Assembly (NCBI GenBank): GCA_964559215.1
Contig: CAZLFZ010000001.1
Span: 3,985 to 67,984, forward strand
Reading direction: 5' to 3'
From: an uncultured archaeon
GTDB taxonomy: Archaea; Aenigmatarchaeota; Aenigmatarchaeia; QMZP01; JAFGSV01
Length of the DNA stretch: 64,000 bases
The notes beneath the pieces were generated by a model. The model was given only the letters and a program-made list of their open reading frames with translations. It was not told where the DNA came from and searched no databases. Each line of letters starts with the position of its first letter. Position 1 is the stretch's first letter. The position numbers and the translations under genes are program-made. Of the stretch, positions 8,194 to 26,400 are shown piece after piece.

Positions 8194-9297
8194 TCAGATT
8201 TTCAAAATGCCTAGCTTCAGCAGATAACGAACGGTGCCGAACTTTAGCAACAACTTGAAGTTTTTCTGGACCGCGCTTGCCAGGTCGCACGAAAAAAAGC
8301 AGTGCTTGCAGATATCCCCTTTTTTTATGATGTTTCGGATTTCAGCCGCCTTCTTCGAATACCAGATTTCCCTGATCGCTTTTTCCCTCAAGTTACCGAC
8401 TTTAGGCAGATTGTTGCAGAAATAAACATCGGCATAGGGGTTTATCGAGAACGTCCCTGATCCGGCATCGCATGGCAAAAACCTTTTTTTCTTCTCTATT
8501 TGCTTATGAGTGTAGTAATCAATGAAATGGTTCCTGGTGAAAAGTCCCTTTACCTGCTCATCGGTCAGCCCGAGATGCCTCTTGTCTATGTTCTTGTAAA
8601 AGGGATCCTGGAAAGAAGCCACGGTCAAGGAGCTGGGGAGGCCATTCGCATTGCAGAAGCGCTGAAGTTCTTGCATGTGATTGATGTTCATCTGCGAAAC
8701 CACGCACTGCGTGGTTAGCAGCAGGTTATCATGCTGCTTTTCCAGTTTTTTCAGGGCAAAAATCGTTTTGCTCGTTTTTTTGAAGGCGCCTCTCACACCC
8801 CTGATCCTGTCGTGGGTCTCACCCACTCCGTCCAGGCTCACGGAGATGCCCACATTCAATCTTAGACTTGGAACGACCTCCTTGACAAAGCCTGTTATTT
8901 TCTTTGTCAGGAAACCGTTTGTGGATATGTCTATTTCTTGGAGGTTTTTGCATTTGTCCTGCCACAGGAGAATTAAATCAATCAGGTCTTTCCTCAAGAA
9001 AGGCTCCCCGCCCGTGACATTCATGGTGCTCAAGGAAGACCAGAACGGCTTGTCGCTCAGCATATCCTCGTACTCGTCCAGCGTGATTGTCTTTGTCGAA
9101 TCCTGCAGCCTGCTGATATTGCACATCACGCAGTTGCCATTGCATCGCCAGGTGACTATGTTGACCAGATGCCTGGGCTTGGTAGCCTTGGATTTATCGA
9201 ACAGGCTTTGAGCGCTGTACCTCAGGCTGCCTAAGACGAAATTTATTTTTCTGGTATAAGATAATTTATCAATGCCCGTTGTCTCTTTTTCGCTCAT
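8194..9297 (-). CDS. Radical SAM protein with C-terminal SPASM/twitch-like Cys cluster
   Basis: 367 aa. 'CNGNCVMCN' CxxxCxxC near the N-terminus. C-terminal 'CDAGS...C...CKHCFFSC' auxiliary cluster cysteines. Confidence 0.65.
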   Translation of the reverse strand: MSEKETTGIDKLSYTRKINFVLGSLRYSAQSLFDKSKATKPRHLVNIVTWRCNGNCVMCNISRLQDSTKTITLDEYEDMLSDKPFWSSLSTMNVTGGEPFLRKDLIDLILLWQDKCKNLQEIDISTNGFLTKKITGFVKEVVPSLRLNVGISVSLDGVGETHDRIRGVRGAFKKTSKTIFALKKLEKQHDNLLLTTQCVVSQMNINHMQELQRFCNANGLPSSLTVASFQDPFYKNIDKRHLGLTDEQVKGLFTRNHFIDYYTHKQIEKKKRFLPCDAGSGTFSINPYADVYFCNNLPKVGNLREKAIREIWYSKKAAEIRNIIKKGDICKHCFFSCDLASAVQKNFKLLLKFGTVRYLLKLGILKI

Positions 9298-9350
9298 TTT
9301 ACCATTCGCTTAAAATCCTATTTATTAAAATCGCTAAATTAATTCATATT

Positions 9351-10271
9351 ATGCCAGTTTCATTTATAATCCTAACCTACAACTCAGCGAAAACCGTAAA
9401 GAAATGCTTGGAATCTGTTCTGAAACAAAAATGTAAAAAGGAGATAATGGTGGTTGATGGTTGTTCTACTGACAAAAGCGTAGAAATAGTGAAAAAAATC
9501 AAGGGTGTGCACATTCTTCTCGCCAAAAAGGATGGGATTGCCCCGGCAAGAAACATGGGCCTGAAAGCAGCCAGAGGCGATTATATTGCATTTGTCGATT
9601 CTGATGTCGTCCTGCCGCCAGGATGGTGTAAAAAGGCGATAAGCCTGCTCGAAAGGGACGAAAAAATCGCCGGGGTTGGAGGGCCTGGGATAAGTCCCGA
9701 AAAAGGGGCCGTCACAGAATCGCTGAACATGCTCCTTTTTGGAAAAACCCCGGCTGAGGAAAGGGAGGTCAGATCAATAGCAACGATGGATGCCATGTAC
9801 AAGAGAGAAGCCGTGGCCGGGCATGTTTTCGATGAAACGCTCGAGACCGGGGAAGACCCGGAATTCAATCTGAGGCTGATCAAAAGAGGTTACAAGCTAT
9901 TGTTCTCGGAAAAATTGCGGGTCTGGCACCATCACCCCGTGAGTTTAGGCGGGCTTGTAAAGAAATGGTACAACTATGGGAAGAATTACCCTATCATGTG
10001 CTCCAGGCACAGGGAATTCAAAAGCAAGGAATATTACGTCAGGATCTCTTACATGCCGTTGCTTATAGCCTTTCTCCTTCTTTCACTTTACGAAATAAAT
10101 TTCGCATTTTTGGCGTTTTTGCAGGTCTTTTCACTTTATCTTATTTATTTTGTAAAGGGTCTCAAGATTGGCGCGGGGCTCAAAACACCGGTTTTTTCAG
10201 GCATACACACACTGAAGCAACTCGCGCAGCTCGCTGGGAATCTGGTCGGTTTGAAGAAAGTGATGAGGTAG
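9351..10271 (+). CDS. Glycosyltransferase family 2
   Basis: 'VSFIILTYNSAKTVKKCLESV...DGCSTD...AFVDSDV' carries the GT2 DXD and a canonical N-terminus. The start is moved from the longer ORF to the ATG at 9351. Its C-terminus has TM helices. Confidence 0.65.
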   Translation: MPVSFIILTYNSAKTVKKCLESVLKQKCKKEIMVVDGCSTDKSVEIVKKIKGVHILLAKKDGIAPARNMGLKAARGDYIAFVDSDVVLPPGWCKKAISLLERDEKIAGVGGPGISPEKGAVTESLNMLLFGKTPAEEREVRSIATMDAMYKREAVAGHVFDETLETGEDPEFNLRLIKRGYKLLFSEKLRVWHHHPVSLGGLVKKWYNYGKNYPIMCSRHREFKSKEYYVRISYMPLLIAFLLLSLYEINFAFLAFLQVFSLYLIYFVKGLKIGAGLKTPVFSGIHTLKQLAQLAGNLVGLKKVMR

Positions 10272-11345
10272 CTATCTCCTTCCAAAAAGCCTCCAGCTCT
10301 TTCCCTCTATGTCGCTTATCCTGACATCATGCAGTTTGGCGTCCATTGCCCACTGCTCGACTTCGTGCCTCGTGTAATAGTTGTTGATGGGGGTCGCAAG
10401 CAAGTCGAAAGCGTCCGCGTGCTTTACCCGGAAAGGGAACCTTGCGTAGCCTTTGAACGGCACATAATTCGATAAACTTCTTGTCGCGTCATTGCCGTTG
10501 AGGAAATTGTAAATGAGATTGCATGAATGATAAATCCCTGCCGGCAGATAGCATAAGTAATACAACATCCTGTGCGGCATCCTGGATGTGATTTTCCTTA
10601 TAATTCCCTCCACCACATGTATTTTGAACCACCGGCCCTCCCGGCCGTAAAGCCAGACGAATATCGTGGTGCCTTTTTTCATCAAATTCACAAGGCTCAT
10701 GAAGCCCTTTTTGGGCCCCGGCAAGTGATGTAAAACGCCAATGGACATGATGAAGTCAAATTCGTGCCTGAACGGAGGATTGTAGATGTCCCCCTGCACT
10801 ATGTGCACATGCTCGAATTTCCTGCAGTTTTTGTAGGCGGCCTCAACCGCATCGCTCAGGTCAAAACCCACGACCTCGGCCCCGTATTTCGCCGCATAAT
10901 ATGTGTGCCGCCCGCTACCGCAGCCTGCATCAAGCACCACCTTGTTTTTGAAAAACGATGGCTTGAGGGGCTTGATATAATTCAGAAAGTTCTTTTCATA
11001 CTCCACGAACATTTCAGAGAAGACGTTCCACTGGAATCCGAAGGATTTTGATGTTAGCTCCTTGATTTTTTCGGTTTCGGCTCTTGTTTCCGTGCCGGTT
11101 TTGGGTATTTTTTCCCTATATTTTTCCAGGAAGGTGTTCAGCAGAAATTTGTTTATCATCGAAAGCGGCATCATCCTCGGTATCCCGTTAATCACGGGAT
11201 ACCATTTGCCGCATTTCTTGCAGGTAAGCACGCCTTCTAGCATTTCCCTTTTACCGGAGTAAGAAAACGCCTTCGACTGTAATGCGCCTTGGCATGCCGG
11301 GCATATCAGAATCTTGAGAAGGTTTCTTTTCATCTTGGGCACCAA
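10272..11345 (-). CDS. Class I SAM-dependent methyltransferase with N-terminal Trm112-like zinc ribbon
   Basis: 357 aa. N-terminal 'CPACQGAL...CKKCGKWYPVINGIPRMM' followed by 'VLDAGCGSGRH' (motif I) and 'GVLHHLPGP'. Confidence 0.6.
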   Translation of the reverse strand: MVPKMKRNLLKILICPACQGALQSKAFSYSGKREMLEGVLTCKKCGKWYPVINGIPRMMPLSMINKFLLNTFLEKYREKIPKTGTETRAETEKIKELTSKSFGFQWNVFSEMFVEYEKNFLNYIKPLKPSFFKNKVVLDAGCGSGRHTYYAAKYGAEVVGFDLSDAVEAAYKNCRKFEHVHIVQGDIYNPPFRHEFDFIMSIGVLHHLPGPKKGFMSLVNLMKKGTTIFVWLYGREGRWFKIHVVEGIIRKITSRMPHRMLYYLCYLPAGIYHSCNLIYNFLNGNDATRSLSNYVPFKGYARFPFRVKHADAFDLLATPINNYYTRHEVEQWAMDAKLHDVRISDIEGKSWRLFGRR

Positions 11346-11395
11346 ACCAGCTTAATAACGAATATGGTTAAATGATATAAATTGGTTCAACGAGT

Positions 11396-13192
11396 TTAAT
11401 GAACCGAGTTGCATGGTGTTCTGTAGATTTTTACCACAGGCGCGCCGTCAGCGAGCACGGAATGGACGGGGGAGCTCAAGTCCATGCATTCTCTTGTAAG
11501 TTCGTTTATATGGGCCTCGCTCTCGAAAAGGCCGCTCCTTGACATGAGCACGATGTAGTCCGCATCTTGCATCGTTTCCGGTCTCTCGATGACATCGTAA
11601 TAACTGACTATTTCAATATCGTCCCTCAGCAACGCATCCTGCTCAAAACTGAACTGGCCGAGCCCAACTGATGTGACATTGAATCTCGTTTTTATCTGCC
11701 CGATATCTCCGTATTTGTACGTGTTGAATATGTTGTGGGCCATAGGGATGTAAATCTTGGCATTCTCGACAGCGTTCTCGTTCAGCCAGCCAACTACCTC
11801 CAGATAAGGCTCTCCGGACCACACAGTCTCGTACAAGCCCGAATTGTAAACACCACCCGTACCTCCAACCATGAGATTGAAGTACGTATCAGTGTGCCCC
11901 TTCCAGATTGCAGCGAATCCAGGTGCTATCAGCAGCCCCGCAACCATGATTGTGAGGATGTTCTGCTTCTTCCTTAAAAGGACGGGGATTTTTGCAGAAT
12001 TAAGCAGGGAGTCCGCACCTATGCCGGACAGAATGCCAATGAACAGGAACGACTGCATGAACTGCTGGACGCCGTTGTATGCCACCTGAGAAACGCTCAA
12101 AATCAACAAGGGGGTCAGGGCGCTCAAAAGGAACAGCATGGATGTCCTGTTTTTGTTCGTCTTTGTATCTTTTATGGCAATGTAGCTGCCTAGGCAGGCG
12201 AATAGCAGTATCGGCACCGGCAAGGTAGCGGCTGCTAGGGAAAATATGTACAAAAACGATGGATGGGTAACCACGGTGCCAAGGAAATAAACGGGAACGG
12301 CACCCGTACTTATTGTACTCAGGTAATATGACTTCCACCAAACGAACCTGCTTATCGTATTGTGCCACAGCCAAGGCCATGACATAACCCATACGATGGG
12401 CGTGACAATTATCAGCGAAAGAACTGTGACCATTATCTTCGGGGGTTTCAGGCTTGCCATCCGATGTACGTTATCCAACACCTTGTCCCGGTAGCTGACC
12501 AGCAACCACACGATTATAATCACTGGGATGAAGACCGCCTGAGCCTTGGTCGCCAGGGCTAAACCCAGCATGACCCCTGAAAGCAGGCCATATTTCCAGT
12601 TTTTCATCCCAAGCCAAAAGAACCACAACGTCAGCACCCAAAATATTGCTACAGGCTCGTCCATCAGGACGTATTTGGAATGTGCGAAAAACCTTGGAAT
12701 GAAGATTATAGAGAGAACCGAGAACAGGGCTGCCCTTCTGCTATGCGTCCCCCTTACAAAAAGATACACTGCAGCAAGGCCTATCGCAGTTAAAAGTATT
12801 ATCGCAATGCGATGGGCCATTATGGAAGAAATAACATTGAGGCTGCCGCCGTTGAGGAACCAGATCCCAGCCCAGGTGATGCCGGACATCGTTATAGACA
12901 GCTTCGGTCTTCCCTCCCAGCACCTGCTTGCCCATTCGGCATTGATTTCATTGACATCCCTGGCGAGTTCGAAGTCAAGCGTCAGGTCGCAGAAGAACAA
13001 GTCTGGTTTGCCCGTGGCCATCGAGTAAAGGGAATACGCCCTGGCCTTTGCCTGCGCTATGTATCTGTTCTCATCGATTGTAATCCCCGTTGCCGGCAGG
13101 CTCCATAATGCGCCAACCAGATACACGGATAACAGGAACGATATCGCCAGCAAATCCGCTTTCGGATCCTTTAGGTGATTCTCCAAAATCAT
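11396..13192 (-). CDS. Polytopic membrane protein, GT-C-fold glycosyltransferase candidate (ArnT/PMT-like)
   Basis: 598 aa with about 11 predicted hydrophobic helices in the first 430 aa, then a roughly 170-aa soluble C-terminal domain. Acidic 'DE' in an early loop. No WWDYG motif, so it is not a canonical AglB. Confidence 0.4.
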   Translation of the reverse strand: MILENHLKDPKADLLAISFLLSVYLVGALWSLPATGITIDENRYIAQAKARAYSLYSMATGKPDLFFCDLTLDFELARDVNEINAEWASRCWEGRPKLSITMSGITWAGIWFLNGGSLNVISSIMAHRIAIILLTAIGLAAVYLFVRGTHSRRAALFSVLSIIFIPRFFAHSKYVLMDEPVAIFWVLTLWFFWLGMKNWKYGLLSGVMLGLALATKAQAVFIPVIIIVWLLVSYRDKVLDNVHRMASLKPPKIMVTVLSLIIVTPIVWVMSWPWLWHNTISRFVWWKSYYLSTISTGAVPVYFLGTVVTHPSFLYIFSLAAATLPVPILLFACLGSYIAIKDTKTNKNRTSMLFLLSALTPLLILSVSQVAYNGVQQFMQSFLFIGILSGIGADSLLNSAKIPVLLRKKQNILTIMVAGLLIAPGFAAIWKGHTDTYFNLMVGGTGGVYNSGLYETVWSGEPYLEVVGWLNENAVENAKIYIPMAHNIFNTYKYGDIGQIKTRFNVTSVGLGQFSFEQDALLRDDIEIVSYYDVIERPETMQDADYIVLMSRSGLFESEAHINELTRECMDLSSPVHSVLADGAPVVKIYRTPCNSVH

Positions 13193-13294
13193 CCGGCATC
13201 ACTTTATAATGACATTTGATATTGTTAATAATTAAATATTCTATCTATCTATGTTAAAACAAAATAAAACAAGAGGTCGGTCGTCTTGAAAGTA

Positions 13295-14752
13295 ATGATA
13301 ACATACCCTCCCATCGAATCTGAAAAGGGATTCCCCCTGCTGTCCCAGAACAGGCAGTTCCAGTGGTTCAACAATCCCACCTTGCTGTTCCCGGTAATTC
13401 CGGCGTCTGCAGCGACATTGCTTGACAGCAAGGGCTACGATGTCGTGTGGCTCGATGCCATCGCCGAGGGTTTGCCTTATGATGAGTATGTGGAATTTTT
13501 CAGGAGGGAGAGTCCTGACCTGGTCGCAATCGAAACCAAAACCCCCGTGATCAGGCGTCATTGGATAATAATCAACGAACTGAAAAAAATCTCACCGAAG
13601 ACGCGTTTTGTGCTGATGGGCGACCATGCAACCGCTTTGCCAAAAGAGTCGTTGGAGGAATGCGCTGGGCTCGATTTTGTGATTACGGGAGGGGACTACG
13701 ATTTTTTCCTGCTGGACCTGTGCGACTATCTGTCAAAAAAATCCAAAAAACCGCCTCATGGCCTGTGGTATCGCAAAGGCGATGCTATAAAGAACACGGG
13801 CCGGTTCCAGCTCAGCCACAACCTGGACGATCTGCCTTTCATAGACAGGGAGCTGACAAAAGGCAGCTTGTATAACGTGGAATACAACATCAAGGCGAGG
13901 CCCTTCGCCTACACGATGGCGGGCAGGGACTGCCCCTATCACAAATGCAAATTCTGCGCGTGGCCCATACTATTTCCGACGTTCAGGACGAGGAGCCCGG
14001 ACAATGTCTTGGACGAGATAGGCATGCTCATCGAGCGCTACGGGGTCAAAGAGGTCTTTGACGATACAGGGACCTTCCCACCGGGGGCATGGCTGAACAA
14101 GTTCTGCAAGGGTATGATAGATCGTGGTTACAACAAGCGGATAAGATTCTCGTGTAACATGAGGGTGGATTACATAAACGGGGAAAACGCGAGGATGATG
14201 AGGGAGGCGGGATTCAGGCTGCTTAAGGTGGGCCTTGAATCGGCCAACCAGACGACTCTTGACAGAATCAACAAGGGTATAAAGGTTGAGCAGATAACGC
14301 AAGCCTGCAAGATAGCGAAAAGGGTGGGCCTTGAGATTCACCTCACGATGATTGTGGGATATCCTTGGGAAACGAAAGGGGAAACAATGGAAACAATGGA
14401 GCTTGCAAAGGAGTTGATGACTAGCGGAAAGGCTGACGTCCTGCAGTCGACTGTCTTGGTTCCATATCCCGGGACGCCCTTGTGGAAAGAGGGGCTCAAA
14501 GAGGGATGGTTCAGATTCGACCCAGCGTCCTACGAGCGCTACGACATGTCGGAGCCTGTCTTCAAAACCCCCGACATGTCCTCGGGGGATGTTATGGAAA
14601 TGTGCAATTCAATCTACAGGAGTTTCGTTACCCCAGGATACATCATGAGGCGTTTGGTTGAAATAAGGTCCTGGAATGACATAAAGTATCTCCTGAGAGG
14701 TTTCAAGGCCGTGTTGGGTCACATGAAGGATTTTTCAAGAAAAGCTGGGTGA
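13295..14752 (+). CDS. B12-binding radical SAM enzyme (class B radical SAM)
   Basis: An N-terminal Rossmann-like cobalamin-binding domain followed by 'AGRDCPYHKCKFCAW' CxxxCxxC. ATG at 13295 chosen inside the TTG-initiated ORF. Confidence 0.7.
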   Translation: MITYPPIESEKGFPLLSQNRQFQWFNNPTLLFPVIPASAATLLDSKGYDVVWLDAIAEGLPYDEYVEFFRRESPDLVAIETKTPVIRRHWIIINELKKISPKTRFVLMGDHATALPKESLEECAGLDFVITGGDYDFFLLDLCDYLSKKSKKPPHGLWYRKGDAIKNTGRFQLSHNLDDLPFIDRELTKGSLYNVEYNIKARPFAYTMAGRDCPYHKCKFCAWPILFPTFRTRSPDNVLDEIGMLIERYGVKEVFDDTGTFPPGAWLNKFCKGMIDRGYNKRIRFSCNMRVDYINGENARMMREAGFRLLKVGLESANQTTLDRINKGIKVEQITQACKIAKRVGLEIHLTMIVGYPWETKGETMETMELAKELMTSGKADVLQSTVLVPYPGTPLWKEGLKEGWFRFDPASYERYDMSEPVFKTPDMSSGDVMEMCNSIYRSFVTPGYIMRRLVEIRSWNDIKYLLRGFKAVLGHMKDFSRKAG

Positions 14753-14756
14753 AGAT

Positions 14757-16049: not shown

Positions 16050-16133
16050 TAATACAAGCCGGCGAATACGTACATGGCAACGAGCAGACTGGCCGTTGCA
16101 TTGTAAGCTCTGGACGCCGGCAGGTGTGTATAT

Positions 16134-18251: not shown

Positions 18252-18255
18252 ATGA

Positions 18256-18945
18256 TCAACTATTTTTCCTCATCTCAAAGATCAGGCTGACGCCGAAGGG
18301 GGCCCTTATGTTTTTTTCTATCTTGTATGCCAATCCTATCAGTGGGGTGAGTCTATTGATTTTCTTGGATCTCCCCCTATACGTCTTTGTCTGGTTAAGG
18401 AAAATATTGGAGAAGAGGAAGGGTGGGAACATCAGGCTGTTCGCATATCTGCATCTCTTCACAACAAATCCGTGGCGTTTTGCAAACTTTATGAACTTGT
18501 TCCTGTCATATCTCCTATAATGGCCCATATGCCTGTCGTGGGTGCCGTAAATGGAGCTATGTGCAGGGACCGTTATTATCGCCTTGCCATCTTTCTTCAA
18601 GAGGCTGCGAATCTCGTCCAGCACTAACCCGTCCTCGCGTACATGCTCCAGCATGTCCCCGCACACGACATAATCAAAAGAACCTTTCCTGAATGGCAGG
18701 TGCCGCGCATCGACAAGGAGTCGTTTTCCCCAAAGCTTCGCTATGTTACCCTTTTCCATGTCAGAAAAAATGACCTCATTATCACCGCTCAGCGAAGATC
18801 CTATGTATCCCGGGCCGCAGCCAAGGTCGAGTATCCTGTTTCCTTTGCCTTTCACCATTTCCATTATTATTCTCAGCCTCACGTTTACCCATATGTCGCT
18901 GCCCAACCTCCCATGCACAATTTTGATGTCGGTCATTGTCACCAA
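18256..18945 (-). CDS. Class I SAM-dependent methyltransferase
   Basis: 'ILDLGCGPGYIG' motif I. 'VVCGDMLEHVRED' post-II region. 229 aa. Confidence 0.6.
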   Translation of the reverse strand: MVTMTDIKIVHGRLGSDIWVNVRLRIIMEMVKGKGNRILDLGCGPGYIGSSLSGDNEVIFSDMEKGNIAKLWGKRLLVDARHLPFRKGSFDYVVCGDMLEHVREDGLVLDEIRSLLKKDGKAIITVPAHSSIYGTHDRHMGHYRRYDRNKFIKFAKRHGFVVKRCRYANSLMFPPFLFSNIFLNQTKTYRGRSKKINRLTPLIGLAYKIEKNIRAPFGVSLIFEMRKNS

Positions 18946-19065
18946 CCGAAAACGACACGAGTACCGAATCTATTCTTTCATTATTTTTCAAATGTTTTAA
19001 ATGCCTTTACGTATCTATAGAGCTTGGAAGGATTCAGAAGTTTTAAATTAAGATTGTTTATTATT

Positions 19066-20004
19066 TTATCTTTCAGCTGAAAATGCAAAAGCGGCGCCAA
19101 AAACCGCGATTACTACATAGCTTATTGTCACTGCTACCAGACTCATTACTACTACCATCTCCGATCCTACTCCGAAAATTGAAAAGAGAAAGACCAAAGT
19201 CGCCTCCCTTGTTCCCCATCCACCTACTGTTATGGGAATCAGTCCTATCAAAGTTGCAATCGGCAACATCGTGACAAATGCTGTGCAGGGTACGTCTATG
19301 CCCACAGAGATTGCTATCATATACGTTGAAGAATACAAAAACAGCCAACCTACAAGTGTCAAGACAAATGGGGCTATTATTTGCCTGAAATCGATTATGT
19401 TATCGTAGAATGAATTGAACGCATCCTTGGCTCTCGTCTTCATTTTTTTGGGTACAAACAACCTCCAGAATATTCTCGTTATTCCCCTGCTCGTCTTTTT
19501 GCGAACAAATATGAAAAGTACCGAAAAAAGTGCGAGGGAAATAACCGAGACGGCTGCAAACAATTCAAAAGAAAGATAATTTGCCAGTGATATCATCCCT
19601 ATTATTGCAAGTACAAAAAGTGCGGTGAAATCCAGCACTTTGTCTATTATCACGCTTACGCTGCATTCTCCCGTACTTTTTCCTGTTTTGTTTTTCATGT
19701 ACCTAATCCTTATAAAATTTCCAACCCTTCCCGGAGTGACAAGACCATAGAACGCACCTATGATATATATCCTAAAGAGTGTCCAAAAGCCCAGACTAAT
19801 GCCTTGCTTCCTGACGAGGTAACCCCATTTGAAATTCTGAATACAGAGATATGAAAAGAAGAGAAATGCCGCGGGAAGCAGATACCTGATGTCCACTTTC
19901 ATGAATGTTTCCAGTATCACCCCAGGTCCTGTTCTGAGAATCAGGTAAACAAGGATGCAGATGCCTATCAAAGGGAGTATCCTTGTCGCTTTTTTCATGG
20001 ACAT
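19066..20004 (-). CDS. UPF0104 / flippase-like integral membrane protein (LPG-synthase-TM-like)
   Basis: 312 aa with 8+ TM helices. 'TPGRVGNFIR' and 'GGWGTREATLVF' motifs match the 41632-42582 paralog. Confidence 0.5.
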   Translation of the reverse strand: MSMKKATRILPLIGICILVYLILRTGPGVILETFMKVDIRYLLPAAFLFFSYLCIQNFKWGYLVRKQGISLGFWTLFRIYIIGAFYGLVTPGRVGNFIRIRYMKNKTGKSTGECSVSVIIDKVLDFTALFVLAIIGMISLANYLSFELFAAVSVISLALFSVLFIFVRKKTSRGITRIFWRLFVPKKMKTRAKDAFNSFYDNIIDFRQIIAPFVLTLVGWLFLYSSTYMIAISVGIDVPCTAFVTMLPIATLIGLIPITVGGWGTREATLVFLFSIFGVGSEMVVVMSLVAVTISYVVIAVFGAAFAFSAER

Positions 20005-20060
20005 AGAAACACCATGAATTTAATTATCAAGATTTTTTAAATATCGGCCATAGGCTGTTC

Positions 20061-20780
20061 CTAATGCTTTTTTATTCTCATCTTTAGAACGGTGAAAAAC
20101 ATGTTAGGTATAGCCCTGCTGATCTTCAGGCTCGACATGGCCTTGTCTTCCCATCTGATAGGCACTTCCTTTATCCTGTAGCCCATCTTCTTTATGACGT
20201 AAAGCATGCACGCATCTATTGCAAAATTCGTCACACTCAGATTCTTTGCCACGGCCTTCACAACATCCCTTCTGAATACCTTGGCAGGGCACTGCGTATC
20301 CTTGTAATGCAGACCGAACAAAAGCCGTATCAGTATGTTGAATCCCCTGCTGGCAATCCTCCTGACAGGCCTCTGCTTCTTCACAACAATGGATCCCTTG
20401 AGCCACCTGGAGCCTATAACGCCGTCATATCTTCCTATCATATTGAGAAGCCTGAGCATCTCTTCGGGAGGCGTCGAGCCGTCGGCGTCCGTATACGCCA
20501 CATACTCTCCACTGGCATAGGCGAATCCACTGAGAAGAGCACCGCCCTTCCCCCCCTTTTCTGGATATACACGATAACGTATGTTTTTGTTTTTCCTTGA
20601 TTTTTCCCTGACTATCTGGGGCGTCCTGTCCGTGCACCCGTCCATGATGACGAGAATCTCGTAACTGTATTTATTTTTGCTGAAAAAATCAGAAAAACTG
20701 TCAAGCGTTTTGCCTATCCTTTTCTCCTCGTTGTATGCCGGAATTATGATGCTAAGTTTTGGTTTCATTTCATTTTCCAT
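20061..20780 (-). CDS. Glycosyltransferase family 2, dolichyl-phosphate hexose synthase (DPM1/AglD-like)
   Basis: 'LSIIIPAYNEEKRIGKTLDS...ILVIMDGCTD...YTDADGSTPPEE'. Start moved to the ATG at 20780. Confidence 0.65.
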   Translation of the reverse strand: MENEMKPKLSIIIPAYNEEKRIGKTLDSFSDFFSKNKYSYEILVIMDGCTDRTPQIVREKSRKNKNIRYRVYPEKGGKGGALLSGFAYASGEYVAYTDADGSTPPEEMLRLLNMIGRYDGVIGSRWLKGSIVVKKQRPVRRIASRGFNILIRLLFGLHYKDTQCPAKVFRRDVVKAVAKNLSVTNFAIDACMLYVIKKMGYRIKEVPIRWEDKAMSSLKISRAIPNMFFTVLKMRIKKH

Positions 20781-20836
20781 ATCTTCGATATTGGATGTTA
20801 TACTTAAATTTAATAAATGCAGAAGAGGTAGTAGAA

Positions 20837-21033
20837 TCACGCGTTGTGATGGTTGTTTATAGTCGTGTGATCTTTGTGTTTTTTGTACCAGTCCATAGTC
20901 TTTTTCAACCCTTCTTCAAGGCCAACTTTCGGTGAATAGCCGAGCACTTCTTTGGTTTTATTGATATTCGGCACCCTTTCCTCAATATCCACATAGTCAA
21001 TCTTCTTGACGCACTTCCCATATCATTTTACGG
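20837..21033 (-). pseudogene. 3'-terminal remnant (about 55 codons) of an NAD-dependent epimerase/dehydratase gene
   Basis: Minus-strand translation reads 'KKIDYVDIEERVPNINKTKEVLGYSPKVGLEEGLKKTMDWYKKHK...*'. This parallels the C-terminus of the intact epimerase at 23025-23984 ('KKIDYPDVKTRVPNIDKAREMLGFEAKVSLEEGLKKTIEWYRQNMKE*'). It is bounded upstream by an in-frame stop with no N-terminal part. Confidence 0.6.
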
Positions 21034-21247
21034 CCTCGGCACAAGGGACGCTGCCATGATATACCTCCTCGACCTTATAGGCATTGCTGCAGAATCAGCG
21101 GTGCCTTTTCCGTAATGATACCCATAGTCAACTACGTGCTTGTGGGTGTTGCTGGCATGATGCTCTGGGCAAAAAATCCAATAAACCTCAGGGGCCCGGT
21201 TGAACATGTTAATCAGTATGCTAAGGCCGGCGGCGGCGTTCAATATA

Positions 21248-21270
21248 CTTAAATATATACTTAATATATT
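21248..21270 (+). promoter_or_regulatory. Archaeal TATA/BRE-like element upstream of 21291 gene
   Basis: 'cttaaatatatacttaatatatt' sits 20-43 nt upstream of the ATG. Confidence 0.3.
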
Positions 21271-21290
21271 TCCTTTGATAGTGAAGTAAT

Positions 21291-23024
21291 ATGAAAAAAT
21301 ACAATGTAATCTGGATTGTTGGCGATCGTATCAGAAGCTACAAGACCAGCCCTGATGATGACGCCAGCAGGCTTAAAGTGATAGACACATTAGCCGAGGA
21401 TGCCGTAGAGTTCACAAACGCAATTACAAGCGCACCGAGCACTGTAATTTCTGCGTCAACGATGTTCACCGGCCTGCCAGGTTGCCTCATCAGCCGCCAT
21501 TACAATGATTGGAAATTTGATGAAAGGAGGATAAGTTCCATACAGAACACATTAAAGAAACACGGTTATGAGATATACACCATACATGACGCGAGGGAAT
21601 GCAGAAGGATGATGCAAGACCTTATACACCCTCTCTCTGCCAAGTACTTTCCTAAGGGAATAACCCACGACAACATGTGGACAAGCAAAGACGTCACTGA
21701 TATACTTGAGAATCTGCTTAACAATGCTGAAAAGAAGTCTCCGGCTTTCTACATGCTCTGGTATGACTGCAGAGATGATCCAAGCACCACAGACCATATG
21801 CAGAGGGCACTAGATCTCTTCAAGAAGCATGGATTGTATGAGAATTCTATAATCGTTCTGAACTCAGACCACGGCTATCCGGACGCCTCAACCGGCCTTA
21901 CTGGCGAGACCATGAGGAATTTTACACATGACATGATAATAACCGATGACAACATAAAGGTTCCACTCATACTGAAATACCCCGGCTGCCCTAAGGGCAA
22001 GAAAGTGAAGGGTGCGGTGGGAACCTTGGACATCGCTCCCACCATCTACGACATACTCGGCATACCGGAACAGAACACGAAATTCAAGTACAGGGGGAAG
22101 TCCGTCATGGGCATGATACGCGGGAAGGAAAAATCATCCAGGATGATAAGGACGGACACTAGGCTTAGTCTGGCAAACGGCAGGGCGACATCTCTCAGAT
22201 CGAACAGGTACAAATATGTATATTACTGGGATCAGAGAACCGAAGAACTGTACGACCTTCACAAGGACCCGTATGAGACGAAAGACCTCCTGTCCGGAAA
22301 GGTCTCGGCAAACATCAAGAGGGTCTTGCTTAATTTCAGAAAGATGCTAGAGGGAAGGGAAAGGGAAATCAACAATTTCAATATCTTGGTGCTGGATAAA
22401 AACTTCGTAAATAGCATGAACAAATCCTTTTCAAAAAACAGGCAAAAAAAGGTTTCACGGGTGCTAATAACCACGAAGTTTGCACCAAAGATGATGATGG
22501 AATGTTTCCTGAAGTCCTCGAGAAGGGTCTTCCCAAATGCCAAGATAGATGTCCTGTCAAATGATGCTGATCATAAGGAGTACAAGACTTTAGGGTTCGA
22601 TAACGCTTACTCCATCAAGAAACTTGATGCCAATAAGGTTTCCAAATCACCTGCCAAGAAAAACGTATATGACACAGTGTTCTACCTTACCGAGCAATCG
22701 AGGCTGGCTTTCGTGGACGAAAACATTATACAGATGACCAAGGATCTGAAGACTAGAAAATCTATAATGCTGGATTACAACTTTGAAAGCTACAGCAGGT
22801 TTTTTTCAAAGTGGATTGCTCCCATAAGAAGGTGCATGAACCGTAATGTAAAGTTCTACAAGGAGGAACCAACACTATTTTTCAAGGACATCCTCCTCAT
22901 GATAAGAGGCGGTATAAGCCATAACATCAAAAGGGATAGGCTTGATCCGATAGAAGCCGACAATGTTAAAAAAATAAGAGATAGGAAACTGAAACTGAAA
23001 AACAAATCAAGCCACAAAAACTGA
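21291..23024 (+). CDS. Sulfatase-like alkaline-phosphatase-superfamily protein with degenerate formylglycine motif and ~200-aa Lys-rich C-terminal extension
   Basis: 'LNSDHGYPD' sulfatase His box. The position of the C/S-x-P-x-R box reads 'SAPST' with no Arg. 577 aa. Confidence 0.5.
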   Translation: MKKYNVIWIVGDRIRSYKTSPDDDASRLKVIDTLAEDAVEFTNAITSAPSTVISASTMFTGLPGCLISRHYNDWKFDERRISSIQNTLKKHGYEIYTIHDARECRRMMQDLIHPLSAKYFPKGITHDNMWTSKDVTDILENLLNNAEKKSPAFYMLWYDCRDDPSTTDHMQRALDLFKKHGLYENSIIVLNSDHGYPDASTGLTGETMRNFTHDMIITDDNIKVPLILKYPGCPKGKKVKGAVGTLDIAPTIYDILGIPEQNTKFKYRGKSVMGMIRGKEKSSRMIRTDTRLSLANGRATSLRSNRYKYVYYWDQRTEELYDLHKDPYETKDLLSGKVSANIKRVLLNFRKMLEGREREINNFNILVLDKNFVNSMNKSFSKNRQKKVSRVLITTKFAPKMMMECFLKSSRRVFPNAKIDVLSNDADHKEYKTLGFDNAYSIKKLDANKVSKSPAKKNVYDTVFYLTEQSRLAFVDENIIQMTKDLKTRKSIMLDYNFESYSRFFSKWIAPIRRCMNRNVKFYKEEPTLFFKDILLMIRGGISHNIKRDRLDPIEADNVKKIRDRKLKLKNKSSHKN

Positions 23025-23984
23025 TTACTCTTTCATATTCTGCCTATACCATTCTATTGTCTTCTTGAGGCCTTCCTCCAAGGATACCTTTGCCTCGAAA
23101 CCCAGCATCTCCCTTGCCTTGTCTATGTTCGGCACCCTTGTCTTTACATCCGGATAGTCTATTTTTTTGAACGTTATTTTGGATTTTGAGCCGCTCAAAC
23201 GTATCATGGCTTCAGCAAGGCCAAGTATTGTACATGTTGCCTTAGCATTTCCTATGTTAAAAATATTTCCCACCGCCTTTTTGTTCCCCAGGATGAGCAG
23301 TATGCAGTCCACAAAATCGTCAATATAGCACCATGATCTTACCTGGATTCCGTCATTGTGTATCACAAGTTCCCTGTTGTTGATGATGTTATTGGCGAAC
23401 ATCATTACGGCCCCTATTCCCATCTGCCTCGGGCCATAGATATTGAACGGCCTTACTGATGTCACGGGTATACCATACTCCTTGAACCATGAGTGTGACA
23501 GGTACTCAGCAGACAACTTGCTCAGTGCATATACCCACCTTGGCTCGCCAATCGGGCCTATTGATGTATCATCCTTTTCCCCTGACTCATAAGCATCTGC
23601 TCCGTATACCTCGCTTGTGGAAAAATCAATAAAGCTTTCCAGGTCCATTTTCTTTGCAGCTTCAAGCGCATTGTATGTGCCCATCAGGTTCACCCTTAGT
23701 GTGAGATTAGGCATCTTCACAACAGTTGGGGCACCTGTTATTCCTGCGAGGTGCACTACCATGTCACTGCCTAGCATGGACTTTTCAAGCTTTTCCTTGT
23801 CCAGTACATCGCCCTTGATTATCTCCACGTTTGGGTGTTGCGGGATGTTTGTGTAGTTCAGGGAATCCCTGTGAAAAGTGCCATAGATTGTTATCTTATT
23901 GTCATCCATCAGCCTTTCAGCTATATGGCTGCCTATAAACCCCGCTCCGCCTGTCAGAAAAATGGATTTGTTTTTCAAATTCAT
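23025..23984 (-). CDS. NAD-dependent epimerase/dehydratase (extended SDR; UDP-sugar 4-epimerase-like)
   Basis: '[14 protein letters not shown]' Rossmann motif. YxxxK-containing extended-SDR fold. Convergent with the upstream AP-like gene. Confidence 0.7.
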   Translation of the reverse strand: MNLKNKSIFLTGGAGFIGSHIAERLMDDNKITIYGTFHRDSLNYTNIPQHPNVEIIKGDVLDKEKLEKSMLGSDMVVHLAGITGAPTVVKMPNLTLRVNLMGTYNALEAAKKMDLESFIDFSTSEVYGADAYESGEKDDTSIGPIGEPRWVYALSKLSAEYLSHSWFKEYGIPVTSVRPFNIYGPRQMGIGAVMMFANNIINNRELVIHNDGIQVRSWCYIDDFVDCILLILGNKKAVGNIFNIGNAKATCTILGLAEAMIRLSGSKSKITFKKIDYPDVKTRVPNIDKAREMLGFEAKVSLEEGLKKTIEWYRQNMKE

Positions 23985-24127
23985 ACACATATTATTGCAC
24001 ACCTTTTTATATACTTGAGCCAGATTTCATTTGGTTTTGTATGCAGATTCCTTGTTTGAAGCCAAAAGATGTAAGAATAAGGGAAAAAGATAAAAAAACA
24101 CTTTATCTAAACTTTTGTAGTGAAACT

Positions 24128-25351
24128 ATGAAAGTCACACTTATCGGCCCCCCTAGCCCGTATTTGGATAACGATGCCGCGTGCCCGCCGTCCGGTCTCA
24201 TGTACTTAGCAGCAGCTTTAGAAAATATTGGCCATGAAGTGGAAATCCTAGACCTCAGCGGCGGATCAGACTGGAGGAGTAAAGCCCCAAGACTTGAGGC
24301 TGATCTTTTTGGGATAACATGCGTCACACCAAACTTCAACGTAGTCCGAGAGTTGTCCAATCTTCTCCCAGAAGATAGGCCGATAATAATCGGTGGCGTG
24401 CACCCAACACATTTGCCGGAAGATGTCCTTCAGAAGATTCGTTGCGACTCCGTCGTGAGAGGAGAAGGGGAAGTGATAATCAAAAAAGTGATTGAGGACT
24501 TGGAAAGGGGGAAATTGCAGAGGATTTATGAGGGTGGTTTAGTTCCGGTTGAAGATATCCCGAAGCCGGCAAGGCACCTTGTTGACCTCCATAAATACAG
24601 GCCCGGGGGCGAAAAGACAACCCCGGTCTACACTTCAAGAGGATGCCCGTTTAACTGCAATTTTTGCTCAAGGATCACCGGGAGGACCTTCAGGGCCATT
24701 CCCATTCCGCGAGTTTTAGAGGAGATAAAGGAAGTGATGTCACTGGGTTTCAAGCACGTGTATTTCGGTGATGATAACATTGTAATCCAACGCGAAAGGA
24801 TGAAGGAGCTGCTGAAAGCCATCAAGCCCTTGGGTATAGAGTTCAGGCTGAACCATGATGCAAGAACTATAGATGAGGAGATAATCGCTTTGGCCGCTGA
24901 TGCGGGCTGTGATGAGATAAGCTTTGGCATCGAGTCGGGAAGCCAGAGGATGCTCGACCTGATGAACAAATGCACGACTGTTGAGGAAAACAAAAAGGCG
25001 ATGCTGCTAACAAAAAAACACGGAATAAAATCAAAGGCTTACATCGTGGTGAACTTCCCGGGAGAGACCGAGGAGACGGTCAAGGAGACCATAAAGTTCA
25101 TATCTGAGGCAAGACCGGACAAGTGGCTGCTGTCATCCTTTGCCCCTCTGCCAGGCTCCAATACTTTCCACCACCCAGAGAAATACGGAATCACTTGGAT
25201 GAGTAAAAACTGGGAAGACTACTATCTTGCTGGAAAGGATGGGAAATTCAAGCCCTGCTTCAAGACCGACGAACTTTCCTTTGAAAGACAGATATACCTT
25301 CATAATCTTCTTATAGAGAGCCTAAGGGAACAGATAGGAAGACAGCATTAA
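24128..25351 (+). CDS. B12-binding radical SAM enzyme (second intact copy)
   Basis: N-terminal B12-binding domain ('MKVTLIGPP...') then 'SRGCPFNCNFCS' CxxxCxxC. ATG at 24128 chosen within the longer ORF. Confidence 0.7.
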   Translation: MKVTLIGPPSPYLDNDAACPPSGLMYLAAALENIGHEVEILDLSGGSDWRSKAPRLEADLFGITCVTPNFNVVRELSNLLPEDRPIIIGGVHPTHLPEDVLQKIRCDSVVRGEGEVIIKKVIEDLERGKLQRIYEGGLVPVEDIPKPARHLVDLHKYRPGGEKTTPVYTSRGCPFNCNFCSRITGRTFRAIPIPRVLEEIKEVMSLGFKHVYFGDDNIVIQRERMKELLKAIKPLGIEFRLNHDARTIDEEIIALAADAGCDEISFGIESGSQRMLDLMNKCTTVEENKKAMLLTKKHGIKSKAYIVVNFPGETEETVKETIKFISEARPDKWLLSSFAPLPGSNTFHHPEKYGITWMSKNWEDYYLAGKDGKFKPCFKTDELSFERQIYLHNLLIESLREQIGRQH

Positions 25352-26289: not shown

Positions 26290-26400
26290 AAGACTTCCCA
26301 GTTTTACCCAATTTGTTTTATTTACGCTATTTATATATTTAAGATATGTTGGAAGAATCTGGTTATTGGACACCGTAAACAGCTGACCCACATCTGGAAT

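Follow-up and report, generated by a model that had tools for sequence, protein, structure and literature searches.

Radical SAM enzymes of three families in a probable archaeal cell-surface glycan assembly locus

For the calditol synthase Cds of Sulfolobus acidocaldarius, a radical SAM enzyme, contraction of a lipid-linked hexose to a cyclopentitol has been proposed, and the reaction of HpnJ is known from genetics only (PMC13459092). AprD4, a radical SAM diol dehydratase, works with the NADPH reductase AprD3 in the C3' deoxygenation of paromamine (PMC5461906). The class B methylases (GenK, GenD1, Fom3, MoeK5, TsrM, TokK and MgmA) place an N-terminal Rossmann B12-binding domain before a radical SAM barrel, an architecture shared by the B12-type enzymes described here, and several of them methylate sugars. 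Three-component glycosylation systems based on lipid carriers combine a GtrB/ArnC-type GT2, a flippase and a GT-C enzyme such as ArnT. GT-C fold enzymes use lipid-phosphate-sugar donors extracellularly, and sugar modification in the Arn pathway takes place on the lipid carrier.

Within the window (the whole 64,000-nucleotide stretch of archaeal DNA that was analysed), five radical SAM genes or remnants lie inside 26 kb, surrounded by GT4, GT2, GT-C, Wzx, SDR and aminotransferase genes (Table 1). With moderate confidence, we read this region as a cell-surface glycan assembly locus built of separately conserved modules, in which the three intact radical SAM enzymes, each of a different family, tailor glycans. 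These families are unrelated and uncharacterised, and we found no coverage of them in the literature searched. Two of them, here termed F1 and F2, recur with glycan genes across many genomes, so that more than chance clustering is at work; since both adjoin sugar-handling genes in many other genomes, they probably perform radical chemistry of unknown kind on sugars. The original prediction had held such chemistry to be uncharacterised for archaeal glycans, and in the open-access literature searched no paper indeed connected archaeal N-glycan loci with radical SAM enzymes.

Gene content of the locus

Open reading frames and Pfam domains agree with the predicted inventory of three intact radical SAM enzymes, two intact class I methyltransferases and one C-terminal methyltransferase fragment, and independent metagenome assemblies contain all the intact proteins, residue-for-residue. 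Two further class B remnants had been predicted, a count that was wrong by one. A B12-binding domain (33967-34407, 69 bits) and a piece bearing CPYQCTFC (33713-33943) together form a single truncated class B enzyme, which aligns to residues 1-180 of the intact enzyme only. The other remnant is a SPASM-type enzyme spread over three frames (33439-33681, 33055-33435, and 32748-33098 with a SPASM match of 53 bits). The breaks in these remnants are real, because the 5,597 nt containing them are 100% identical in an assembly from a different sequencing run. A DNA glycosylase gene is also present in the locus.

Table 1. Features of the locus, with positions in the window
Feature	Position	Strand	Evidence
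GT4 glycosyltransferases (two)	5895-7049, 7062-8177	+	Pfam Glycos_transf_1 130.8 and 100.9 bits
Radical SAM, intact, abbreviated SPASM	8194-9297	-	Pfam Radical_SAM 48.7, SPASM 41.3 bits
GT2a, GT2 with membrane helices at C-terminus	9279-10271	+	Glycos_transf_2 113 bits; hydropathy
Class I SAM methyltransferase, N-terminal Trm112-like Cys4 zinc ribbon	10272-11345	-	Pfam Trm112p 42, Methyltransf_11 61.8 bits
GT-C fold glycosyltransferase (PMT_2, ArnT-like), at least 7 membrane helices	11396-13192	-	PMT_2 51 bits; hydropathy
B12rSAM1, family F1	13295-14752	+	Radical_SAM 73.6, B12-binding 38.5 bits (cutoff 32.1)
430-aa protein, Pol-beta nucleotidyltransferase-fold N-terminus	14757-16049	+	Motif GGFGKGEGS...NDFD...HVD; begins 4 bp past B12rSAM1
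Alkaline-phosphatase-superfamily phosphodiesterase or phosphotransferase	16134-17282	+	Pfam Phosphodiest 73.3 bits
GT2b, membrane-anchored GT2, 3-4 C-terminal helices	17271-18251	-	Hydropathy; conserved partner of B12rSAM1
Class I SAM methyltransferase	18256-18945	-	Methyltransf_11 51.7 bits; shares minus-strand operon with GT2b
LPG_synthase_TM (flippase-like) membrane protein	19066-20004	-	Pfam 169.7 bits; TIGR00374 116.8 bits, above cutoff
GT2c, soluble DPM1/ArnC/AglJ-like GT2	20061-20840	-	NCBIfam PgfS, ArnC, AglJ, dolichyl-phosphate hexose transferase, all under cutoff
Sulfatase-like alkaline-phosphatase-superfamily protein	21291-23024	+	Pfam Sulfatase and SGSH_C
SDR epimerase/dehydratase, divergent from B12rSAM2	23025-24002	-	Pfam Epimerase 183.9 bits
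B12rSAM2, family F2	24128-25351	+	Radical_SAM 97.1, B12-binding 68.6 bits; CPFNCNFC
Divergent SDR, convergent with B12rSAM2, 4 nt overlap	25348-26391	-	Pfam Epimerase 86.4 bits
UDP-GlcNAc 3-dehydrogenase-like, hexapeptide acetyltransferase, DegT aminotransferase	26428-29247	+	NF040723 220.7 bits (under cutoff); DegT 451 bits
Wzx-type flippase	30730-32277	+	Polysacc_synt 102.5 bits
Class I methyltransferase, C-terminal fragment	32260-32499	-	Methyltransf_23 profile positions 80-126 of 164 only
SPASM-type radical SAM pseudogene, frameshifted, three frames	32748-33681	-	SPASM 53 bits; identical in an independent assembly
Class B radical SAM remnant, truncated	33713-34407	-	B12-binding domain and CPYQCTFC
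GT4 glycosyltransferase	34532-35710	+	Pfam search, as for the first two GT4 genes

The larger of the intact methyltransferases has the Trm112-like N-terminus foreseen for it, its ribbon (C15xxC18...C42xxC45) being fused to a Methyltransf_11 domain with motif I VLDAGCGSG; conservation of this protein beside radical SAM families elsewhere was not found. Homologues of the smaller one occur in six related loci, immediately after the radical SAM gene in one (L065) and close downstream in another (L085). A Pfam search with the 430-aa protein gave nothing above cutoff; its homologues accompany radical SAM genes in 11 DPANN loci (the motif together with weak PF18765 matches in 6 of 11), and those of the phosphodiesterase-like protein are found in 10-11 DPANN loci. 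In the sulfatase-like protein, which has no membrane helix, SAPST replaces the (C/S)xPxR formylglycine motif. The top NCBIfam match of GT2b is MftF (114.6 bits, under cutoff), the LPG_synthase_TM protein has a weak HpnL profile match (53.9 bits), and GT2c is probably a polyprenyl-phosphate sugar synthase. The dehydrogenase-like, acetyltransferase and aminotransferase genes would provide a route to 2,3-diacetamido sugars. Neither AglB nor a deacetylase is encoded in the window.

Family F1 and its relation to HpnJ

By sequence, F1 is a large, strongly conserved and uncharacterised family: a search returned 5,871 matches at E<=1e-10, of which the best 120 are all at least 56% identical, and 539 genome loci were confirmed in bacteria and archaea. 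A GT2b homologue (median 38.5% identity) lies at most 10 kb from F1 in 56 of 80 loci, and in 46 of 77 it stands immediately 5' of F1 in the same orientation (by tblastn, 50 of 80). GT2c-like genes, typically just upstream of GT2b, are present in 44 of 80; other companions are LPG_synthase_TM (14 loci), AglB (12 loci) and GT-C enzymes, the PMT_2 type among them (11 related loci). The DPANN members adjoin AglB and AglH. Two DPANN loci (L012 and L028) have the order AglB-AglH-LPG_synthase_TM-GT2b-radical SAM...CE4 deacetylase-GT2c-nucleotidyltransferase-like-second B12 radical SAM-phosphodiesterase...GT-C, which is essentially the gene set of the window; the window differs in that GT2b lies 2.5 kb from B12rSAM1 and on the opposite strand.

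Among the characterised enzymes compared, HpnJ, which is proposed to contract a sugar ring and is no methylase, appears to be the nearest relative of B12rSAM1. It is the top NCBIfam model (191.5 bits, where the cutoff is 577.6; BchE scores 139.5) and is 28% identical to F1 over 460 aa (E 1e-40). Placed against class B enzymes by neighbour-joining, a distance method applied to few characterised sequences, F1 joined HpnJ plus a Lawsonia radical SAM protein with bootstrap values of 72% and 82%, and BchE or a MoeK5-like enzyme with 0%; pairwise BLAST did not tell HpnJ and BchE apart. F1 and HpnJ also deviate alike in their motifs: both show [EH]T[KS]TP, GG has lost its first Gly, and GEGE is replaced by [FY]D. 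In B12rSAM1 the cobalamin-site motifs read AIETK, GDH and GGD, so that the conserved cobalamin contacts looked for in both B12-type enzymes are canonical in B12rSAM2 alone. The same division holds for the CxxxCxxC cluster motif originally predicted for both: B12rSAM1 has CPYHKCKFC, that is C-x4-C-x2-C, with C213, C218 and C221 invariant across F1.

The resemblance to the hpn system extends to gene order, hpnI(GT2)-hpnJ-hpnK(deacetylase)-LPG_synthase_TM paralleling the DPANN F1 loci. In both, a membrane GT2 stands immediately 5' of a radical SAM gene of class-B-type architecture, LPG_synthase_TM lies alongside and, in the DPANN versions, a deacetylase is nearby. However, that deacetylase is of the CE4 and not the YdjC type; HpnJ has CX3CX2C, whereas F1 has CX4CX2C (61 of 77 members) or CX7CX2C (16 of 77); GT2b is no orthologue of HpnI (23% identity over 131 aa); and pairwise comparison of the window's LPG_synthase_TM protein with HpnL gave nothing significant. 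The F1 locus has no hopanoid genes in its vicinity, its host is an archaeon and its context is glycan assembly. Cds, compared by description only, is proposed to act on a lipid-linked sugar by chemistry of the same kind, but its homologues are reported mainly in acidophiles; F1, by contrast, occurs widely in anoxic sediments.

Family F2 and the SPASM-type enzyme

Judged on its motifs (CX3CX2C, GITCV, GGVH and GEGE), B12rSAM2 is a canonical class B enzyme and represents a second uncharacterised family. An SDR gene is present in 36 of 41 F2 loci, immediately downstream in 23, together with GT2 genes in 25 and UDP-GlcNAc 2-epimerase in 15. The SDR-radical SAM-SDR triad is retained in a relative 83% identical to B12rSAM2, and another relative sits inside a Wzx/Wzy cluster. 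The partner SDRs elsewhere are 29-30% identical to those of the window, no better than an unrelated SDR, and are not clear orthologues.

The AlphaFold2 models of B12rSAM1 and B12rSAM2 (pLDDT 86.7 and 87.2) both resemble AprD4 most closely among PDB structures (TM 0.72-0.79), followed by MgmA, TsrM and OxsB, and AprD4 is the top PDB match by sequence as well. AprD4 has a sugar substrate, and its partnership with AprD3 is mirrored by the pairing of F2 with a nicotinamide-dependent SDR. Against this stand a sequence identity of only 16-20%, scores of 57-87 bits with the NCBIfam AprD4 model (cutoff 500), the canonical cobalamin motifs retained by B12rSAM2, and the setting, which for AprD4 is an aminoglycoside cluster and here a primary cell-surface glycan locus.

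That radical SAM enzymes form part of the glycan machinery, as originally predicted, is well supported: F1 is found with GT2, DPM1-like GT2, LPG_synthase_TM, GT-C and AglB, F2 with SDR, GT2 and UDP-GlcNAc 2-epimerase, and the homologues of neither family are consistently tied to non-glycan pathways. The SPASM-type enzyme has the cluster motif C52NGNC56VMC59 (CNGNCVMC) and five Cys in its SPASM domain versus the canonical seven. No NCBIfam model reached its cutoff, and only three homologues exceed 40% identity. Its relatives adjoin GT4 and PMT_2, GT2, or other radical SAM genes with GT9 and GT4; we propose that the enzyme, itself next to GT4 and GT2 genes, is a tailoring enzyme confined to its lineage.

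A candidate pathway and competing readings

The domains, family assignments, conserved neighbourhoods and tree positions described above are observations; for module 1 (about 11.4-20.8 kb; two convergent operons and the GT-C gene), we infer substrates, step order and chemistry as follows. GT2c would produce a polyprenyl- or dolichyl-phosphate sugar, and membrane-anchored GT2b would add a sugar to a lipid-linked acceptor on the cytoplasmic face. A 5'-deoxyadenosyl radical of B12rSAM1, which may also use cobalamin, would take hydrogen from the sugar added by GT2b, which would thereby be remodelled. The product would be flipped, the LPG_synthase_TM protein being the candidate flippase, and transferred extracellularly by the PMT_2 GT-C enzyme; the class I methyltransferases, the nucleotidyltransferase-fold protein and the phosphodiesterase-like protein may add further decorations. 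The DPM1/ArnC-like GT2, flippase-like membrane protein and PMT_2/ArnT-like GT-C recall the three-component systems, from which module 1 differs in its additional membrane GT2 and radical SAM enzyme and in a flippase candidate that is neither GtrA nor ArnE/F. In module 2 (23.0-26.4 kb), B12rSAM2 lies between two SDRs and would probably act on a nucleotide sugar, either by C-methylation or by a radical dehydration in the manner of AprD4/AprD3 with a subsequent ketoreduction (deoxygenation). For B12rSAM1 our tentative first choice is an HpnJ-type skeletal rearrangement, with ring contraction to a cyclitol; C-methylation ranks next, as nearly as likely.

It seems doubtful that the two B12-type enzymes both transfer methyl groups in a cobalamin-dependent way, as GenK, GenD1, Fom3 or MoeK5 do, to unactivated sugar carbons of nucleotide- or lipid-linked intermediates. 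MoeK5 sets a precedent for C-methylation of a lipid-linked sugar. Methylases are the majority of characterised class B enzymes (PMC9204698), B12rSAM2 carries all three canonical cobalamin motifs (GxTxV, GG, GE) and scores about 140 bits with PhpK-type methylase models, and the structural matches include MgmA, TsrM, CysS and TokK. However, the window enzymes reach the cutoff of no methylase family model, the nearest characterised relative of B12rSAM1 is a non-methylase, its cobalamin motifs are deviant, the MoeK5-like sequence stands apart from it in the tree, a dehydratase is the top structural match of both models, and the two class I methyltransferases could explain O or N methylation. The original emphasis on C-methylation (GenK, Fom3, TsrM) is thus not supported specifically. 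The known analogues HpnI/J and Cds both work on membrane lipids (PMC13459092), and the membrane anchoring of GT2b and the regular company of LPG_synthase_TM, as in hpn operons, would also suit a B12rSAM1 module that modifies a membrane-lipid head group and not protein glycans: the GT2 would glycosylate archaeol, GDGT or diacylglycerol and the radical SAM enzyme would form a cyclitol, as in calditol or the bacteriohopanetetrol cyclitol ether. We consider this unlikely, given the AglB, AglH, Wzx, GT-C and GT4 genes co-located with the module and the similarity of GT2c to polyprenyl-phosphate sugar synthases. Moreover, F1 occurs in thousands of organisms, and we are not aware that cyclitol ether lipids have been reported in any of these.

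Glycan tailoring, our preferred role for all three enzymes, has a competitor in the case of the SPASM-type enzyme, which might instead be a protein maturase of the anaerobic sulfatase-maturating type (anSME) acting on the sulfatase-like or phosphodiesterase-like proteins. Anaerobic sulfatase-maturating enzymes are radical SAM/SPASM enzymes, two alkaline-phosphatase-superfamily proteins are encoded in the locus, and one distant homologue is labelled AslB (JGI). This role is nonetheless improbable: no anSME model is among the 25 NCBIfam matches listed of 58 families, those listed being far under cutoff; (C/S)x(P/A)xR is absent from both candidate substrates; and the relatives of the enzyme adjoin glycosyltransferases, not sulfatases. 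Pseudogenes (32260-34407), the DNA glycosylase gene and a gene order unlike that of other genomes would fit a variable genomic island in which the radical SAM genes are unrelated passengers with no role in a glycan pathway. This we regard as the least probable reading of all, as both B12-type families keep their gene pairing across dozens of phyla and the window has operon-like starts and stops, one gene following the last after 4 bp and others overlapping by 4 nt.

Radical SAM genes in an archaeal glycan region

The three intact radical SAM (rSAM) enzymes of the window belong to three different families, two of which keep fixed partners among glycan genes in many phyla. All three lie in a single large archaeal glycan-biosynthesis region at ~5.9-50 kb, recognised from the ORF listing and from Pfam and NCBIfam scans and flanked by archaeal markers. 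Its reach to ~50 kb follows from further nucleotide-sugar genes and the three genes tabulated among them. No RNA genes were found in the window with Rfam, and every intact protein has an exact match, residue by residue, on independent metagenome contigs from JGI and Logan.

Positions of the features discussed, in window coordinates. The gathering cutoff of Radical SAM (PF04055) is 29.5 bits.
Feature	Position	Strand	Details
Eco57I-type fused restriction-modification enzyme (N6 DNA methylase)	54-3032		992 aa; left edge, followed by small ORFs without family match
EndoDU/NucS	4444-5043		Archaeal marker flanking the glycan region
TFS	5423-5851		Archaeal marker flanking the glycan region
SPASM-type rSAM	8194-9297	-	PF04055 48.7 bits
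Ribbon-bearing methyltransferase	10272-11345	-	Methyltransf_11 61.8 bits; motif I VLDAGCGSG
GT-C	11396-13192
B12rSAM1 (family F1)	13295-14752	+	PF04055 73.6 bits
430-aa nucleotidyltransferase-fold protein	14757-16049	+
Alkaline-phosphatase-superfamily phosphodiesterase	16134-17282	+
GT2b, membrane-anchored GT2	17271-18251	-
Second intact methyltransferase	18256-18945	-	Methyltransf_11 51.7 bits; motif I ILDLGCGPG
GT2c, soluble DPM1/ArnC/AglJ-like GT2	20061-20840	-
Sulfatase-like protein	21291-23024		577 aa
B12rSAM2 (family F2)	24128-25351	+	PF04055 97.1 bits
HhH-GPD DNA glycosylase	29569-30495		Inside the glycan locus, between an aminotransferase and a Wzx flippase
Debris with rSAM and methyltransferase remnants	32260-34407	-
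Methyltransferase fragment	32260-32499	-	Without motif I
ORF without Pfam match	37923-39815		630 aa; among further nucleotide-sugar genes
Flavin amine-oxidase / UDP-galactopyranose-mutase-like protein	39921-41390		Among further nucleotide-sugar genes
Second LPG_synthase_TM gene	41632-42582		Among further nucleotide-sugar genes
DUF4430 protein	60095-61033		24.9 bits (cutoff 23.8)
SecDF			Archaeal marker flanking the glycan region
Thiolase/HMG-CoA synthase pair	61.5-63.8 kb		Archaeal-type; flanking marker

The original prediction had placed three intact rSAM genes, two intact class I methyltransferases and one methyltransferase fragment in this region, and the ORF listing and Pfam recovered all of them at the same coordinates. 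It had also counted two class B remnants, of which the minus-strand debris holds just one: a truncated class B rSAM consisting of a B12-binding domain (69 bits) and CPYQCTFC and spanning only the first ~180 residues. It is accompanied by a SPASM-type rSAM broken into three frames and by the C-terminal half of a methyltransferase. Assembly error is ruled out as the origin of these three items, which are real pseudogenes, because these 5,597 nt recur unchanged in an assembly made from a separate sequencing run. Nor are they paralogues of the intact genes: the class B remnant is 26-30% identical to B12rSAM2, and the other two gave no BLAST match to the intact genes of the window.

Two of the intact enzymes carry the canonical [4Fe-4S] cluster motif CX3CX2C, as CNGNCVMC in the SPASM-type enzyme and CPFNCNFC in B12rSAM2. 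The CPYHKCKFC of B12rSAM1, earlier read as CxxxCxxC, in fact has the spacing CX4CX2C, and its three cluster cysteines (C213, C218 and C221) are invariant in an alignment of 15 sequences. The same spacing is found in 61 of 77 genomic F1 members, and CX7CX2C (CWWRKDGGCTFC) in the remaining 16, which come from Bathyarchaeia, Methanocaldococcus indicus and Hecatella (e.g. loci L085, L065 and L042); the canonical spacing occurs in none of the 77.

The B12-binding domain (PF02310, cutoff 32.1) scores 38.5 bits in B12rSAM1 and 68.6 in B12rSAM2, and a precomputed match is absent from several F1 members. Class B enzymes contact cobalamin through Gx(S/T)xX on beta-3, GG on beta-4 and GE at alpha-5 (PMC9204698). 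B12rSAM2 has all of these in canonical form (GITCV, GGVH, GEGE), whereas all three are altered in B12rSAM1 (AIETK, GDH, GGD), as they also are in HpnJ, a proposed hopanoid sugar ring-contraction rSAM. No clear gene for cobalamin uptake or synthesis was found within the 64-kb window; its sole possibly cobalamin-related gene is the marginal DUF4430 match, a domain which we take to resemble cobalamin-binding proteins.

Both intact methyltransferases show motif I of class I SAM methyltransferases, (V/I)LDxGCGxG. The first bears a Cys4 zinc ribbon of Trm112 type (PF03966, 42 bits, cutoff 22; C15xxC18...C42xxC45). This ribbon is fused to the enzyme and is no free-standing Trm112, since it reaches 58.8 bits against the archaeal Trm112 equivalog, short of the 77 bits required. 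Neither methyltransferase accompanies the rSAM families consistently; Methyltransf_11 genes are seen again in six F1 loci and adjoin F2 in two relatives.

The F1 family and its gene partners

A protein search with B12rSAM1 returned 5,871 matches at E<=1e-10, the best 120 of which are all ~485 aa long and share 56% identity or more. None of the NCBIfam models attains its cutoff, and DPANN bins supply the closest rSAM homologues that carry a name. Scanning genomes confirmed 539 loci, of which the 80 best, at 50-67% identity, are spread over DPANN archaea, Bathyarchaeia, Methanocaldococcus indicus and many bacterial phyla, with hosts that include Omnitrophota, Desulfobulbaceae, Dehalococcoidia, Spirochaetia and Latescibacterota. 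Bacterial and archaeal members of F1 share 50% identity or more.

Gene neighbourhoods were counted over the best 80 of the 539 loci. A homologue of GT2b (median identity 38.5%) lies within 10 kb of the rSAM gene in 56 of the 80, and directly upstream on the same strand in 46 of 77; a soluble DPM1/ArnC/AglJ-like GT2 resembling GT2c is nearby in 44 of 80. In Methanocaldococcus indicus (L085), the GT2b-rSAM pair adjoins additional GT2s and an ORF of 974 aa without Pfam match. Other neighbours are an LPG_synthase_TM protein (14/80), AglB/STT3, AglB being the archaeal oligosaccharyltransferase (12/80), a PMT_2-type GT-C (11/80) and a WecG/TagA-like transferase (11/80), the last of which adjoins the rSAM in about nine loci without an upstream GT2b.

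About ten DPANN loci (e.g. L012 and L028) share the order AglB - AglH-like - LPG_synthase_TM - GT2b - rSAM - (CE4 deacetylase) - GT2c, continuing with a homologue of the 430-aa protein, a second B12 rSAM, a phosphodiesterase and a GT-C. The window holds the same gene set in another order, as two convergent operons together with the GT-C: the rSAM, the nucleotidyltransferase-fold protein and the phosphodiesterase on the plus strand, and GT2c, LPG_synthase_TM, a methyltransferase and GT2b on the minus strand. Because F1 adjoins AglB in these genome-reduced archaea, the arrangement suggests that it is important for the DPANN envelope.

The 430-aa protein carries a Pol-beta nucleotidyltransferase signature (GGFGKGEGS...NDFD...HVD); no Pfam family exceeded threshold, and its profile returned nothing significant against PDB sequences. 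The phosphodiesterase gene comes after it; the two are found together again in about ten DPANN loci, and their products may equip the glycan with a phospho-substituent. CE4 polysaccharide deacetylase genes, absent from the window, were observed with the rSAM modules of DPANN loci and of the closest relative of B12rSAM2 (L012, 12289-13071; L028; L175, 9855-10616).

Likeness of F1 to HpnJ and candidate chemistry

HpnJ provides the best NCBIfam model for B12rSAM1, with a full-length score of 191.5 bits; BchE reaches 139.5. Membership is rejected at this score, the curated equivalog cutoff of TIGR03471 being 577.6 bits; BLASTP against annotated HpnJ gave 28% identity over 460 aa (E 1e-40). In neighbour-joining trees, F1 was sister to a group of HpnJ and an HpnJ-like rSAM from a glycan locus on a Lawsonia plasmid (bootstrap 72% and 82%), and grouped with neither BchE nor the probable MoeK5 homologue of S. 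clavuligerus pSCL4. F1, HpnJ and the Lawsonia enzyme depart in common from the class B cobalamin motifs: they carry [E/H/D]T[K/S]T[P/A] on beta-3, lack the first Gly of 'GG' and have [F/Y]D instead of 'GEGE'. HpnJ is the closest to F1 of the characterised enzymes that were sampled. According to genetics, HpnJ, which is not counted among the methylases, contracts the glucosamine ring of BHT-glucosamine to a cyclitol ether (PMC13459092, PMC9204698). The original prediction had proposed rSAM glycan tailoring with an emphasis on methylation; the general idea holds up, while the emphasis does not, a non-methylase being nearest to F1.

Two chemistries are weighed for B12rSAM1. A rearrangement of the HpnJ type is put forward tentatively, with C-methylation slightly less likely. 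B12rSAM1 would remodel a sugar put by GT2b on a lipid-linked intermediate, and the product would then be flipped and transferred by a GT-C enzyme. The annotated hpn operon runs hpnI (membrane GT2) - hpnJ - hpnK (deacetylase) - LPG_synthase_TM, and the DPANN F1 loci contain these four kinds of protein. Orthology of GT2b with HpnI was rejected (23% identity over 131 aa), as was that of the window's LPG_synthase_TM protein with HpnL (no detectable BLAST similarity); Pfam and NCBIfam scans of the window found no YdjC deacetylase and no squalene-hopene cyclase, and the host is an archaeon. We consider it unlikely that GT2b-B12rSAM1 and LPG_synthase_TM, with the CE4 deacetylase in DPANN, form an HpnIJKL-like cassette converting a lipid-linked (amino)sugar to a carbocyclic cyclitol that is built into surface glycans or lipids. 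Were this nonetheless so, thousands of anaerobic bacteria and archaea would be expected to carry a glycosidase- and acid-resistant 'carbasugar' unit in their cell-surface glycans or lipids, among them DPANN lineages with the cassette beside AglB. Such glycoconjugates would constitute a widespread class that has gone unrecognised, the product of an rSAM family with an unusual CX4/CX7CX2C motif.

The enzymes fall in a known superfamily, within which the F1/GT2 module forms a distinct, uncharacterised variant that is very widespread and whose cluster motif is unusual. The F1 reaction, once worked out, would give a function to thousands of genes; a carbocyclic, C-methyl or deoxy sugar are the candidate products. 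The answer could bring new sugar structures to light, and the GT2b-rSAM pair is a small, defined unit.

The HpnJ-like rSAM of Lawsonia intracellularis plasmid 1 (NC_008012.1, 7920-9383) scores 375.8 bits against the 577.6-bit cutoff. No hopanoid genes are annotated within the stretch examined, where the rSAM is surrounded by GT2s, GalE, SIS, HAD, a GHMP kinase, a second rSAM and five class I methyltransferases.

The F2 family and the SPASM-type enzyme

B12rSAM2 is 24% identical to B12rSAM1 and belongs to a separate family, F2, which is monophyletic at 100% bootstrap and has 3,750 matches at E<=1e-10. Across 52 metagenome loci, a GT2 occurs in 25 and a UDP-GlcNAc 2-epimerase in 15; of the 41 loci whose sequence extends far enough downstream, 36 contain an SDR epimerase/dehydratase, and 23 have it directly downstream. 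An 83%-identical relative keeps exactly the window's triad SDR(-)|rSAM(+)|SDR(-), and a 66%-identical one is housed in a Wzx/Wzy-type cluster. These neighbourhoods therefore point to a nucleotide-sugar substrate, on which B12rSAM2 would act jointly with an SDR. That the SDR partners elsewhere are orthologues of the window's own SDRs is not supported.

The pairing recalls AprD4, an rSAM sugar diol dehydratase, and its reductase partner AprD3 (PMC5461906). AF2 models of both B12-type enzymes (pLDDT 86.7 and 87.2) match AprD4, MgmA, TsrM, OxsB and TokK across their full length, and AprD4 is the best solved structure for both (TM 0.72-0.79). Sequence identity to AprD4 is only 16-20%, methylases follow close behind in the structural ranking, and scores of 57.3 and 86.7 bits against a cutoff of 500 exclude both from the AprD4 family (NF033070); the likeness lies at the level of the fold only.

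The two B12-type enzymes probably tailor glycans or lipid-linked sugars. Two of the three rSAM families are large and strongly conserved, with fixed gene partners and without a curated family model. To our knowledge, the surface-glycan tailoring described in archaea and bacteria consists of class I methylation, acetylation, amination and sulfation, and we know of no rSAM chemistry described for any archaeal glycan pathway. The searched literature contained no paper linking rSAM enzymes to archaeal N-glycan loci and none on F1, F2 or the SPASM-type family, the search having covered rSAMs together with AglB and N-glycans, HpnJ homologues in archaea, and B12 rSAMs in DPANN or polysaccharide loci.

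The SPASM domain of the third enzyme (PF13186) reaches 41.3 bits (cutoff 21.5) and has five cysteines (276, 294, 330, 333, 337; C-x17-C...C-x2-C-x3-C) where the canonical domain has seven. Three homologues alone exceed 40% identity, the others being generic rSAM/SPASM proteins at ~30%. A role as sulfatase maturase (anSME) is rejected: the 25 NCBIfam matches listed, out of 58 families matched, include no anSME model, and neither alkaline-phosphatase-superfamily protein of the window carries (C/S)x(P/A)xR. The sulfatase-like protein has SAPST in place of (C/S)xPxR and no membrane helix, and no Pfam family matched its long C-terminal half. Homologues of the SPASM-type enzyme occur in glycosyltransferase-rich contexts: with GT4 and PMT_2, with GT2, and in a cluster with three B12 rSAMs, GT9 and GT4. 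One metagenome locus (L167; JGI 3300038380, Ga0434945_000502) combines two SPASM rSAMs and three B12-binding rSAMs in a single cluster, interleaved with GT9, GT4 and an epimerase, and multi-rSAM glycan loci therefore exist elsewhere.
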